A stretch of DNA of 64,000 bases from Eledone cirrhosa (GCA_964016885.1 OZ024743.1:72912001-72976000), one strand, 5' to 3'; positions 258-53,645 are shown, counted from the stretch's first letter. Made by a program: numbers and translations. The notes: generated by a model from the letters alone, not told the origin.

Positions 258-955
258 GAGAGACGTAAAATAAAAAAATTATAAAATTAACTTACTTACT
301 AAAAAATCACTTCCAACTAATTAGTTTCTGGAATGGAGTAAATATATTTTCCGAAGAAACATATCGAAAATCATTCCGTCATCAGGAAAGTCTTTTTCCG
401 TGTAAGTCTCCAGGCATAGCGAGGACTCTGGAAACTTATTAAAAAAATAATTCAGTGGAATGGAAATAGCGAAGCGTGGACTGGATTCCATTGAGAAAAT
501 CACTGCTTCTACGTCTGTGGCAAATTCAAAAAGAATCAATCACGTGACATCGAGGTCAATCAGTGGAAAGCGAGTGGTTAATAAGACAGCGGCCAGCCTA
601 CTACCATAGTAGCAGTCATGGCCAAATATTGCTCGACAAATGAATTGGAGATAATTATAAGGAATTTATATCTAGTAACATTTATATACACACAGATGCA
701 TATCAATGCTAGCAAATATATAGGTTTTGTCTTATTAACATTGTGGTTCAATACATGGGGTTGCAGAACAATAATATGAGAGACGTAAAATAAGAAAATT
801 ATAAAATTTTATAATTTTCTTGTTTTACGTCTCTCATATTATTGTTCTGCAACCCCATGCATTGAACCACAATGTTAATAAGACAAAACCTATATATTTG
901 CTAGCATTGATATGCATCTGTGTGTATATAAATGTTACTAGATATAAATTCCTTA
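258..955 (-). mobile_element. Non-autonomous Penelope-like/retrozyme-like element (520-bp unit plus inverted arm) in (TA)n
   Basis: GAGAGACGTAAAA recurs at 258 and 778. ~655-805 is inverted at ~810-955. It carries a hammerhead motif, and a diverged second copy lies at 58945-59455. Confidence 0.75.
309..391 (-). ncRNA. Type I hammerhead ribozyme motif
   Basis: Minus strand reads ACUUUC-CUGAUGA-C-GGAAUG...CAUUCC-A-GAAA-CUAAUUAG-UU/GGAAGU. Stem I is ACUUUC/GGAAGU, stem II GGAAUG/CAUUCC, stem III palindromic, triplet GUU. Confidence 0.85.
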
Positions 956-1411
956 TATATATATATATATATACAAATTTTAGTACAGCATTAACGAAGC
1001 TTTAGGTTGCGGCCAAGCTAACGAATGCAAATTCAGTAATTAGCTTTAGCACTCGATAGGGAATATATATATATATATATATATATATATATATATATAT
1101 ATATATATATATATTATATATATATATATTGATTTACGAATGTTTCTATCAATACAGTAAGAAAATACATTCTTCTATATAAATTTCATAAACTCTGAAC
1201 TGTCTTTACCTATCTTACTGTGGACTATAAAATCACATTTGAGCTTTGAATTATTCTTCGCCTAAATATGGTTGTTATCAACTCATCTAAACTATCTTAT
1301 ATGTATTTATCTATCTATCTATCTATCTATCTATCTGTATATATATATATATATATATATATATATATATATATATATATATATATATATATATATATAT
1401 ATATATATATA

Positions 1412-2213
1412 TAAAGAAAAAGAGATGAAATCGAAATGCAACTGGAGTCTTTTTATTTTGTTTCGCAGTTCTTCTGCTTTTCAAAAGGTGAGTTGAGATG
1501 GAGGGTCTGTGGGTTTTTTCACATCTGGTTGGTCTCTGAATGTTACTTGTTTTATATGGAAAAAGTGGCTCGAAATGCCAGGTTTTTCGAGAAGAAATTT
1601 GATTGGTTTGTCAATAATTATAATAAATTTCGCACAAGTTCGCGTTACAATAGTTCTTCAAATAAGAGGGGGGGTTGTCACAGGTTGGTTTTTTCATATA
1701 TGAGTGTTTGAATTTCTTTTTACTTGAAAAAAGGGGGCTCACGAAGGCTTTTTTGGGGTTGGTTCAAAATAAGGGCACAAAAATTTAATGAAAACTTGTT
1801 CACGTGACAGCCATAATTTCATTTATAACCAACCAAAAAAAAGCCTTCGTGAGCCCCCTTTTTTTAAGTAAAAAGAAGTTCAAACACTCATATGTGAAAA
1901 AACAACCTGTGATAACCCCCCCCCCCTTCTTATCTGAAGAACTATTGTAACGCGAACTTGCGCGAAATTTATTATAATTATTGACAAACCAATCAAATTA
2001 CTTCTCGAAAAACCTGGCATTTCGAGCCACTTTTTCCATATAAAACAAGTAACATTCAGAGACCAACAAGATGTGAGAAGAACCACAGACCCTCCATCTC
2101 AACTCACCTTTTGAAAAGCAGAAGAACTGCGAAACCGGTAAAGGAACCAAAATATATATTTAAAAAAAAAAAAAGACTCCAGTTGTATTTTCGATTTCAT
2201 CTCTTTTTCTTTA
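1412..2213. mobile_element. Fold-back element with possible degenerate hammerhead (CUGAAGA at 1934, + strand)
   Basis: ~350-bp inverted arms flanked by (TA)n. A partial copy of the end lies at ~20643-20780. Stem II of the motif is weak. Confidence 0.7.
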
Positions 2214-3737
2214 TATATATATATATATATATATATATATTGTTATACTTGGGGAGGGTCATATTTGCGTAATATTGCCAGAATTAATAACAGAACACAC
2301 TCACTGTTTGGTTGGTTTCCGCTTCTCGCTGTCTTTTATATCTGCGATCTAACTTACTCGGTCCTCAATGTTGCCATTGACTAACCGACGGTCATATATA
2401 TATATATATATATATATATATATATATATATATATATATATATATATATATATATATATATATATATATATATATATATATATATATATATATATATATA
2501 TATATATATATATACAAATAAATAGATGGATAGATAGATAAATACATATAAGATAGTTTAGATGAGTTGATAACAACCATATATAGGCGAAGAATAATTC
2601 AAAACTCAAATGTGATTTTATAGTCCACAGTAAGATAGGTAAAGACAGTTCAGAGTTTATGAAATTAATATAGAAGAATGTATTTTCTCACTGTATTGAT
2701 AGAAACATTCGTAAATCAATATATATATATATAATATATATATATATATATATATATATATATATATACTATATATATATATATATATATATATATATAT
2801 ATATATATTCCCTATCGAGTGCTAAAGCTAATTACTGAATTTGCATTCGTTAGCTTGGCCGCAACCTAAAGCTTCGTTAATGCTGTACTAAAATTTGTAT
2901 ATATATATATATATATATATATATATATATATATATATATATATATGTCTCTAATCAAGGTTTACCAAATAAGAAATAGTTTTAAAATAAATTTTTTAAT
3001 CTTAACTGTACCTGCTGTAATTACCCTTACCGTACGGTTTCAAGTCTCGAAATAAATGGATAATCGATACGGAAATCCATTGAAAAGGAAGATGTATATA
3101 TATATATATATATATATATATATATATATATATATATATATATATGTATGTATATATATATATATATGTGTGTGTGTGTCTGTCTGTGTCTTTATGTACA
3201 TATATATGTGAGAGTGTGTGTGTGTATATATATACATATATATATATATATATATATATATATATATATATATATATATATATATATATATATATATATA
3301 TATATATATATATATATGTGTGTGTGTGTGTGTGTGTGTGTGTGTGTGTGTGTGTTGTGTGTGTGTCTTAGCGTGGGGATGGATGGATGTATAACCAATG
3401 TGACTGAGAACGTTATACAACCTGCTATATTTTATCAAATGTCTGTTGGGAGTTACATCTCTTAAAAAAACAGTCTGTAACCCAAAACATACTTCAATCT
3501 ATGAACTCACATATTTACTATAAACTAAGCATCAAAAGTTCAGTTTTCCTATATTCAATCTTTACTCAAGGGCCTAAATAAATCATAATTCATATGAATA
3601 TCTGTTAATACACCAGAGAAGAAAATCTCCCTAGGAAGATGTGTAATAAATCCTGTGTTAAATTGTTACTAAATATATATATATATATATATATATATAT
3701 ATATATATATATATATATATATATATATATATATATA

Positions 3738-51798: not shown

Positions 51799-51829
51799 TA
51801 TATATATATATATATATATATATATATAT

Positions 51830-52737
51830 AAAAGAAAATTTCGCTCTACATGGCTGAATACAATAAATGTAATCTTGGTTTTTCGAATATTAATAAAGGT
51901 TTCTTATGTAGGCACAAGGACAGCAATTTGGAGGAGGGGAAATTCAATTAAAATCGACCCCAGTGCGTGACTGGTACTTTATTTTATCGACCCCGTAAGG
52001 ATGAAAGGCAAAGTTAACCTCGGCGGGATTTGAACTCAGACTGTAAAGGGACGTAACTATGCTAGAAAGCATGGCGTCCAACCCTCTACCAATACTGCCA
52101 ATTCACCGATTAATAATAACATTCGATTTGTTTGCAATTTTGCAAACAAGCCTCAATTTTATAGCCATCTCAGTTCGCATGCCAACACTAGAGCAAGAAT
52201 GAAGTGTTCATTCTACTGTCATGGCAATAAAATGTAGGTTTGTTTGCAAAATTGCACACGAATCGAATGTTATTATTAATATTCGAAAAACTCAGATTAC
52301 ATTTATTGTATTCAGCCGTGTAGAACGAAATTTCCTTTTTTATTTGAATTTGGCAAAGTCGGCCATTTATCGCTCGTATACAGGAAACTGACTGCGAGTC
52401 TGCTGATATGCAAATCTGGCTGATAAGTGGATCAGCTAATATGCAGATCTGAATGATCAGCCAGTTTGCTAATATGCAAATCAGGCCGATCAGTCACTGT
52501 GTACTTTTGAAAATAGCATATATTTTCACTATATCTGACAGTTTGGTAGGTCAACAGTGAGCTGTACTGATGAAGGGTGATACCCAGAAACATTAGTGTC
52601 TGCAGTTCTGTTCGCATGCCAACACAAGAGCAAGAATGAAGTATTCATTCTACTGAATTAGCTATAAAATTGAGGCTCGTTTGCAAAATTGCAAACGAAT
52701 CGAATGTTATTATCAATATTCGAAAAACACAGATTAT
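51830..52737 (+). mobile_element. Penelope-like/retrozyme-like element: inverted arm (split by SINE 51897-52110) plus 437-bp unit
   Basis: GTTCGCATGCCAACAC... is repeated at 52173 and 52610. A related fragment lies at ~20305-20500. Confidence 0.75.
52559..52608 (+). ncRNA. Canonical minimal type I hammerhead ribozyme
   Basis: GAGCUGUA-CUGAUGA-AGGGUGAUACCCA-GAAA-CAUUAGUG-UC/UGCAGUUC: 8-bp stem I, GGGU/ACCC stem II, GUC triplet. Confidence 0.9.
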
Positions 52738-52861
52738 ATATATATGTGTGTGTGTGTGTGTGTGTGTGTCTGTGTGTGTGTGTGTGTGTGTGTGTGTGTG
52801 TGTGTGTGTATGTGTGTGTGTGTGATGTGTGTTGTGTGTGTGTGTCAAGATAAATTAACCG

Positions 52862-53645
52862 AGCCATAGACTCGCGTTATTCCCTGTCAATAATGTGCTC
52901 AAAGGTAAAGGAATCCTGAGCTCTTCAAAATACAATATGAAGAAAGGATAACACACTAGAGAGAGAGAGAGAGAGAGAGAGAGAGAGAGAGAGAGAGTGC
53001 CATCAATAAAACAGGGAAACCACCAGTGTATGGAATCTATAACCTACGGAAGGTAGGATAGACACATAATAATTAAAAATACAAATCACCTCTATAACTA
53101 TATATCACACACTTACAAATCCAAAGATATTTGTTTCGCCAAAAAATTATTGACTGAAATGGAAACACCTATGGGTCATGAGCGTGTGTTAGGCTGATAC
53201 ATTCCAGACAACTCTAAGAAAATATAACCGTCCTGCAACACGTGGTAGAGAGATATGGCAGAGGGCATAGAACAGTGAACCAGTGGTATTTGTGGGCTAG
53301 AAATGGCAGCCCAAACCCACTGAAAGAAACGTGCTCAACCAAACAGAGAGAGAGAGGGAAGATAAGCAGCGAAATATCTAGATTGATATTAGCCATAGAC
53401 TCGCGTTATTCCCTTTGGATTTGTACGTGTGTGATATATAGTTACAGAGGTGCGTATACACATGTTGATTTATATTTTTAATTATTATGTGTATACCCTA
53501 CCTTCTGTAGATTATAGACTCCATACACTGGTGGTTTCTCAGTTTTATTGATAGCACACACTTTCTCTCTCTCTCTCTCTGTCTCTCTCTCTCTCTCTCT
53601 CTCTCTCTCTCTCTCTCTCTCTCTCGCTCTCTCTAGTGTGTTATC
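52862..53645. mobile_element. Element with 529-bp direct-repeat spacing and inverted arms
   Basis: AGCCATAGACTCGCGTTATTCCCT at 52862 and 53391; ~52935-53080 is inverted at ~53473-53660. No convincing hammerhead. Confidence 0.55.

Follow-up and report, generated by a model that had tools for sequence, protein, structure and literature searches.

A 64-kb stretch of the 3.0-Gb Eledone cirrhosa assembly (the window; 36% GC, with many (TA)n tracts) contains five small elements, each of which repeats a part of itself at a fixed offset. The question raised by this locus is which template was copied to give slightly more than one unit.

Five mini-element families

Self-comparison of the window after masking of simple repeats recovered the predicted repeats and, in addition, numerous short inverted stubs. 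The offsets of 520, 479, 437, 615 and 529 nt listed in the original prediction are all present and exact; they belong to elements named here by window position as A (258), B (18566), C (52170), D (48214) and E (52846), respectively. The repeat match covers 34/35 nt in A, 89/91 nt in B, 137 nt at 87.6% identity in C, 31/34 nt in D (part of this match being TA) and 24/24 nt in E. The earlier reading is corrected for strand, A, D and E being minus-strand elements. The statement that the tail is repeated directly upstream fails for B, whose repeat is an optional 91-nt 3′ tail and not an upstream stub. The elements are composed as follows:

258..808, minus strand: A main arm, a 520-nt unit (258-777) and a 31-nt second-pass stub; the short 3′ end at 258 adjoins (TA)n at 154-257
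805..957, plus strand: A inverted arm, terminating in the optional tail of 122 nt and followed by (TA)n
18566..19135, plus strand: B main arm, a 479-nt unit and the 91-nt optional tail (19045-19135)
18270..18556, minus strand: B inverted arm, short 3′ end at TA
52170..52743, plus strand: C main arm, a 137-nt stub and a 437-nt unit, ending in a TA/TG repeat
51831..52174, minus strand: C inverted arm in the pieces 52174-52109 and 51896-51831, the latter with tail
48214..48849, minus strand: D element, a 615-nt unit and a stub of ~21 nt, flanked by two (AT)n tracts, with a 33-nt tail at the 3′ end
52846..53415, minus strand: E main arm, a unit of 529 nt here (family median 552) and a 24-nt stub, with a tail of ~83 nt at the 3′ end
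53413..53662, plus strand: E inverted arm, short 3′ end at TA

The inverted arm of C was likely split by the later insertion of a ~220-nt repeat. Protein coding is absent from the units of A to E, as is the RT and GIY-YIG ORF of an autonomous Penelope-like element (PLE); the longest ATG-started frame in any of the five is 61 aa, in line with the claim that they have no ORF. Pairwise comparison of the elements gave no extended similarity among them. No PLE ORF was detected within the 64-kb window, and its Pfam-matching ORFs are LINE-type. The LINE-type elements, unrelated to A–E, are located at 60748-63049, 34100-42600 and 10788-12166; the one at 60.7-63.0 kb has endonuclease and RT, and a degenerate minus-strand LINE has zf-RVT together with what look like two ORF1-like frames of Cys-His knuckles (39-42.6 kb). 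The window further holds long near-perfect hairpins at 47707-47943 and 21682-21795, which gave spurious miRNA matches, and a 200-N gap at 26363-26562.

Genome searches returned 1765-2968 first-look candidates per element, which are not copy numbers, and 40 were scored per search. The median period is 525 nt for A (n=65), 479 for B (12), 438 for C (93), 615 for D (18) and 552 for E (7); the predicted small monomer period is thus a fixed one, its tight medians recurring genome-wide in all five families. Judged by identity, A and D are young (96-98%) and B, C and E older. The longest arms comprise 3.3 units in A, 1.6 in B, 2.7 in C and 2.2 in D, and no long tandem arrays were found among the sampled copies, in which head-to-tail units form short arrays only. 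For C, searching with exact patterns yielded 55 two-hammerhead loci and 210 copies exceeding one unit; reversed controls gave 0. Each of A to E is a family of mini-elements without coding capacity whose monomer has a fixed length, between 437 and 615 nt.

Ribozymes and insertion ends

Six type I hammerhead cores were found in the window with a strict descriptor, compared to 0.05 in 20 shuffles. These matches include A and C; B was matched only with a relaxed descriptor. The original prediction of one hammerhead per period in the first three elements holds insofar as A, B and C each carry the motif, but the direct-arm core of B is mutated (U4>C). Across the families, one type I hammerhead per unit is present in A, B, C and E and absent from D:

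309..391, minus strand: A hammerhead, minimal type I with palindromic helix III, cleavage predicted after 315
18804..18899, plus strand: B hammerhead of the direct arm, long helix III, core U4>C, cleavage predicted after 18889
18425..18512, minus strand: B hammerhead of the inverted arm, intact core (Rfam RF00163, E=0.0078, 20.2 bits; gathering 34)
52559..52608, plus strand: C hammerhead, minimal type I, cleavage predicted after 52600
53108..53189, minus strand: E hammerhead, long helix III, core mutated in the window copy (53182-53176)
48270..48276, minus strand: lone CUGAUGA box of D, with neither stem II nor GAAA box after it

The motifs of A and C are of the minimal kind described for PLE pLTRs, those of B and E of the kind with a long helix III. 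The E hammerhead had been missing from the earlier count; across loci, CUGAUGA is intact in 15 of 25, and in 9 the motif is unmatched. In family D, CUGAUGA is conserved and stem II and GAAA box are missing, so that the box may be a hammerhead remnant. Reading the D motif as type II or type III was ruled out on inspection by eye. Rfam applied to the whole window reported no hammerhead, only microsatellite and hairpin noise, and found nothing in the D dimer. Since it also gave no match for the minimal A and C motifs, Rfam is insensitive here. Two core motifs in tandem occur at the 55 C loci, and dimers and a trimer of A exist; B reaches at most 1.62 units, and the window copies are without two complete ribozymes. 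When monomers were folded as circles, only A and C folded better than shuffles (z of −4.7 and −9.7, compared to −1.2 for B and −1.9 for D).

Additional hammerheads were seen in the window in an inverted pair (50763-51001), as a further minimal motif (53878-53920), in an older A-like copy of 78% (58946-59453) and in a short two-armed C copy (20306-20470). The fetched loci, 1.1 Mb in total, hold 394 motifs resembling type I hammerheads, among them at least 15 recurrent sequence types beyond A–E; the genome contains many more such families.

Copies are not free circular permutations of the monomer, a point which the original prediction had proposed to check. Instead, each family has two fixed 3′ termini, both off the cleavage site and spaced ~33 nt (D), 32-37 nt (C), 83 nt (E), 91 nt (B) and 122 nt (A) apart, with (TA)n after them. 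(AT)n follows the 3′ end at 52/57 A termini and 33/34 D termini. A second, inverted arm is present in 140 of 273 distinct A–D insertions. In two-armed insertions with both ends canonical, a tailed arm is paired with an untailed one in 89 of 100 cases; 40 further two-armed insertions have one atypical end. Families A–D thus display several marks of PLE insertions, namely the optional 3′ tail, the inverted 5′-truncated arm and the partial tandem, together with AT-rich or (TA)n targets. Because optional tail, inverted arms and (TA)n targets are PLE marks, A–E were likely inserted in trans by Penelope-like RT/GIY-YIG proteins.

The copied template

A private variant is defined here as one seen at only one sampled insertion. 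Tandem units of the same insertion have 34 such variants in common, distributed over 20 insertions, where ~1.1 are expected. Arms of less than two full units contribute 20 in 13 insertions (0.92 expected), longer arms 14 in 7 insertions (0.17 expected), and 21 are shared across inverted arms (1.4 expected); none of the shared variants is a CpG-type change. Family D taken by itself, which lacks a complete ribozyme, shows 9 (0.2 expected). For 11 of 24 A units, the nearest neighbor among ~60 comes from the same insertion. In arms below two units, private variants confined to one unit outnumber the shared ones (287 vs. 20), an excess which ageing predicts, and divergence within an insertion is only 15-45% below that between insertions. 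Since tandem units share locus-private variants, one monomer would have been copied repeatedly, which suggests that the template was a single small RNA, possibly circular, and that copying continued beyond one turn. Alternatively, shared variants may stem from gene conversion or DNA-level homogenization between units. At one locus (L082/L311, G000:C4 ~296526300-296528300), three tandem A units have 5-6 private variants in common, which are absent from the inverted arm; hence, its two arms likely derive from different RNA molecules. At other loci, in contrast, variants are common to both arms.

In copies that read through the cleavage site, indels are no more frequent there than expected (0 against 1.2 in A, 1 against 2.0 in B and 3 against 15.9 in C), and this clean junction favors a template that was covalently continuous. 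As predicted, the C repeat starts about 10 nt after the GUC: the stub begins 7-10 nt behind it (cleavage after 52600). Under a null of constant stop rate and with a window of 1-20 nt picked after C was seen, 13/71 5′ ends of A fall behind the cleavage site (5.7 expected) and 22/121 of C (8.1 expected). B has no clear enrichment (3/38; 2.1 expected), and neither has the corresponding place in the control D (4/43; 3.9 expected); the A, B and D sets consist of best-scoring copies. In main arms, the enrichment was also found in the second pass (A, 11/45, 3.9 expected; C, 16/86, 6.2 expected). The densest 20-nt window of 5′ ends in the whole unit begins at cleavage+1 in A and spans 289-308 in C, where cleavage is at 292. 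A sharp pile-up exactly at the C cleavage site was not seen, with 1 end at 291-295 and 4 in another set, boundaries being precise to ± ~5 nt. Four rearranged loci were left out of the C mapping, and six 5′ ends at C position 403 were discarded as an artefact of intervening insertions. In the passes examined, one stop occurs per 146-228 nt on average. The stops suggest that the ribozyme acts on the templates, an indirect sign of self-cleavage.

Based on these results, we somewhat favor, without great confidence, the view that A–E are non-autonomous mini-elements, likely mobilized by PLEs from a small, likely circular monomer RNA which can be copied for more than one turn. A PLE protein would bind the mini-element RNA, and its endonuclease would nick both (TA)n strands. 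Two cDNAs would then be primed internally on the RNA, one per start site, each extending over a variable distance and, on a circular monomer, possibly passing one turn, before the cDNA ends join by microhomology. Monomer circles would likely be supplied by hammerhead cleavage and ligation in A, B, C and E. Some templates were likely opened or only partly cleaved, which would lead to the stops behind the cleavage site, and D likely rebuilds tandems without a working ribozyme. The original proposal, that slightly more than one turn of a self-cleaved and possibly circular RNA was reverse-transcribed, is partly supported by copying up to 3.3 units, by the shared private variants and by the stop hot spot in C and A. 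However, tandems in D, which has no complete hammerhead, and the second-pass stops count against a circle made purely by the ribozyme.

The second-pass stops fit partly cleaved linear oligomers at least as well as circles. On a rather unlikely reading, the elements are the same non-autonomous PLEs, but were copied from a linear, oligomeric and partly self-cleaved RNA transcribed from a parent locus with two or three units; these units would be alike because gene conversion, unequal exchange or, now and then, a previous circle had homogenized the parent. In its favor are the stops that lie behind the cleavage site in the first as well as the second pass; loci with two hammerheads exist (55 for C), and uncleaved RNA is given as the main substrate of an anole PLE in the in vitro work of PMC11167929. 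However, linear copying can only shorten arrays, yet copies of 1.x to 3.3 units persist in all five families. Private variants shared in 13 insertions of less than two units, and the lack of convincing position-specific variants in A or D, also speak against it.

An improbable alternative is a linear monomer or 1.x-mer on which the RT, having reached the 5′ end, jumps back to the 3′ end or to the terminal repeat of that molecule and thereby forms a pseudo-circle without ligation. Such a jump accounts for shared variants and cleavage-site stops and, via a terminal repeat, for the ribozyme-less D. In R2, end-to-end template jumps leave scars. The clean junction speaks against a jump of this kind, but is compatible with a homology-guided one.

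The elements could also derive from long autonomous PLEs, either as ordinary pLTR stubs truncated at the 5′ end or as one-off copies with internal deletions. Every insertion mark is of the PLE type, and PLE ORF matches, located through motifs in the flanks and by tblastn with queries cleared of microsatellite-derived sequence, occur in the flanks of 23 of 323 fetched loci. The original prediction had named copies running 5′ into a PLE ORF as its refutation, but none of the 323 does so on the same strand, and thus A–E are not pLTR stubs; in the nearest case (L013), an inverted arm stands between unit and ORF. Moreover, the monomer occurs as dimers and trimers, and the units are unlike the PLE 3′ ends compared. 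This reading is largely refuted, and we consider it very improbable.

An autonomous PLE family ending in TA is abundant in the genome (L166:3558-6260; C-rich, 3325 first-look candidates). It has RT motifs, a Cys linker, a weak GIY-YIG match, a 3′ region of ~1.6 kb and a minimal hammerhead ~100 nt from its TA-flanked end. No pLTR homologous to the units of A–E was found in the one PLE family and few PLE fragments compared. At three loci (L129:2116-2150, i.e., G000:C2 ~388369550; L033:1985; L093:1040-1157), a mini-element of family D, C or possibly B stands head-to-head with a 5′-truncated autonomous PLE ORF. These junctions may be two-armed insertions from two different RNAs, with later deletions as the alternative; if true, they would identify helper PLEs.

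Finally, duplication at the DNA level after insertion, or an assembly artefact, is barely credible: units of a few tandem loci are nearly identical (0.2-0.8% divergence), but period and register are the same at independent loci with variable 5′ ends, which contradicts this reading, and variants are common even to inverted arms.

Relation to retrozymes and Penelope-like elements

A–E add new members to the non-LTR retrozymes or non-autonomous PLEs. Animal non-LTR retrozymes were described with circular RNAs and with PLEs as candidate helpers (Cervera and de la Peña, 2020; PMC7229834), and a PLE origin is argued in the preprint of Li, Clavereau and Pollet (2026; 10.64898/2026.07.22.740005). Like these, A–E are non-coding, AT-rich tandem units with one type I hammerhead (A, B, C, E), for which PLE mobilization through circular RNA is proposed; here, they are known from genomic DNA alone. 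Unlike these, they are mostly dispersed insertions of 1-2 units (at most 3.3) in which PLE tails and inverted arms are explicit, and one family (D) has no complete ribozyme. Their units are longer than the 170-400 nt given in PMC7229834, but within the 51-972 nt given in the preprint, where two consecutive complete ribozymes are the stated criterion for an “active” retrozyme.

A circular template for PLE copies longer than a unit was proposed in 2014 (PMC4209133), and the PLE tail was explained by two internal RT start sites, with both strands nicked and extended in vitro (PMC11167929); comparable insertion structures are reported in PMC8557442 and PMC3846280. With EN+ PLEs, as portrayed in PMC4209133, PMC3846280 and PMC11167929, A–E share partial tandems, the inverted 5′-truncated arm, AT-rich targets, an optional tail between two RT start sites and minimal hammerheads (A, C). 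They differ in having no ORF, a period of 0.4-0.6 kb and no homologous autonomous partner among the PLEs compared, and the tails of A, B and E (83-122 nt) exceed the 30-40 nt stated as usual. Non-autonomous Chlamys PLEs such as MRC1 likewise form pLTRs and insert as multiple head-to-tail copies (Craig et al., 2021; PMC8557442). According to that account, most Chlamys elements have no hammerheads, as D here; in contrast to A–E, those of the MRC1 kind are algal and their 3′ end is generally similar to that of autonomous families.

In a literature search of incomplete coverage, we found neither a description of families A–E, although supplements of the cited papers may list similar elements, nor a genomic test of circle-templated PLE copying. 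Genomic tests are a useful addition to the 2014 circle model of how PLEs regenerate copies longer than a unit. Because the monomers are short and young and multi-unit copies are numerous, this model can be tested from the genome by shared variants, stop positions and junction precision, and A (with ribozyme) and D (without) offer compact substrates for the existing in vitro PLE assay. A–E tie retrozymes to the PLE machinery through insertion anatomy rather than co-occurrence. The main interest lies in these genomic footprints of a mechanism and in family D. It is possible, if doubtful, that the genome records rolling-circle reverse transcription by Penelope enzymes, with two reverse transcriptases priming at two sites on monomer circles and copying these over and over, and that at least the young family D continues after loss of its ribozyme. 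If true, this would be a hammerhead-independent route to circles or pseudo-circles, possibly explaining the partial tandems of PLEs in general.
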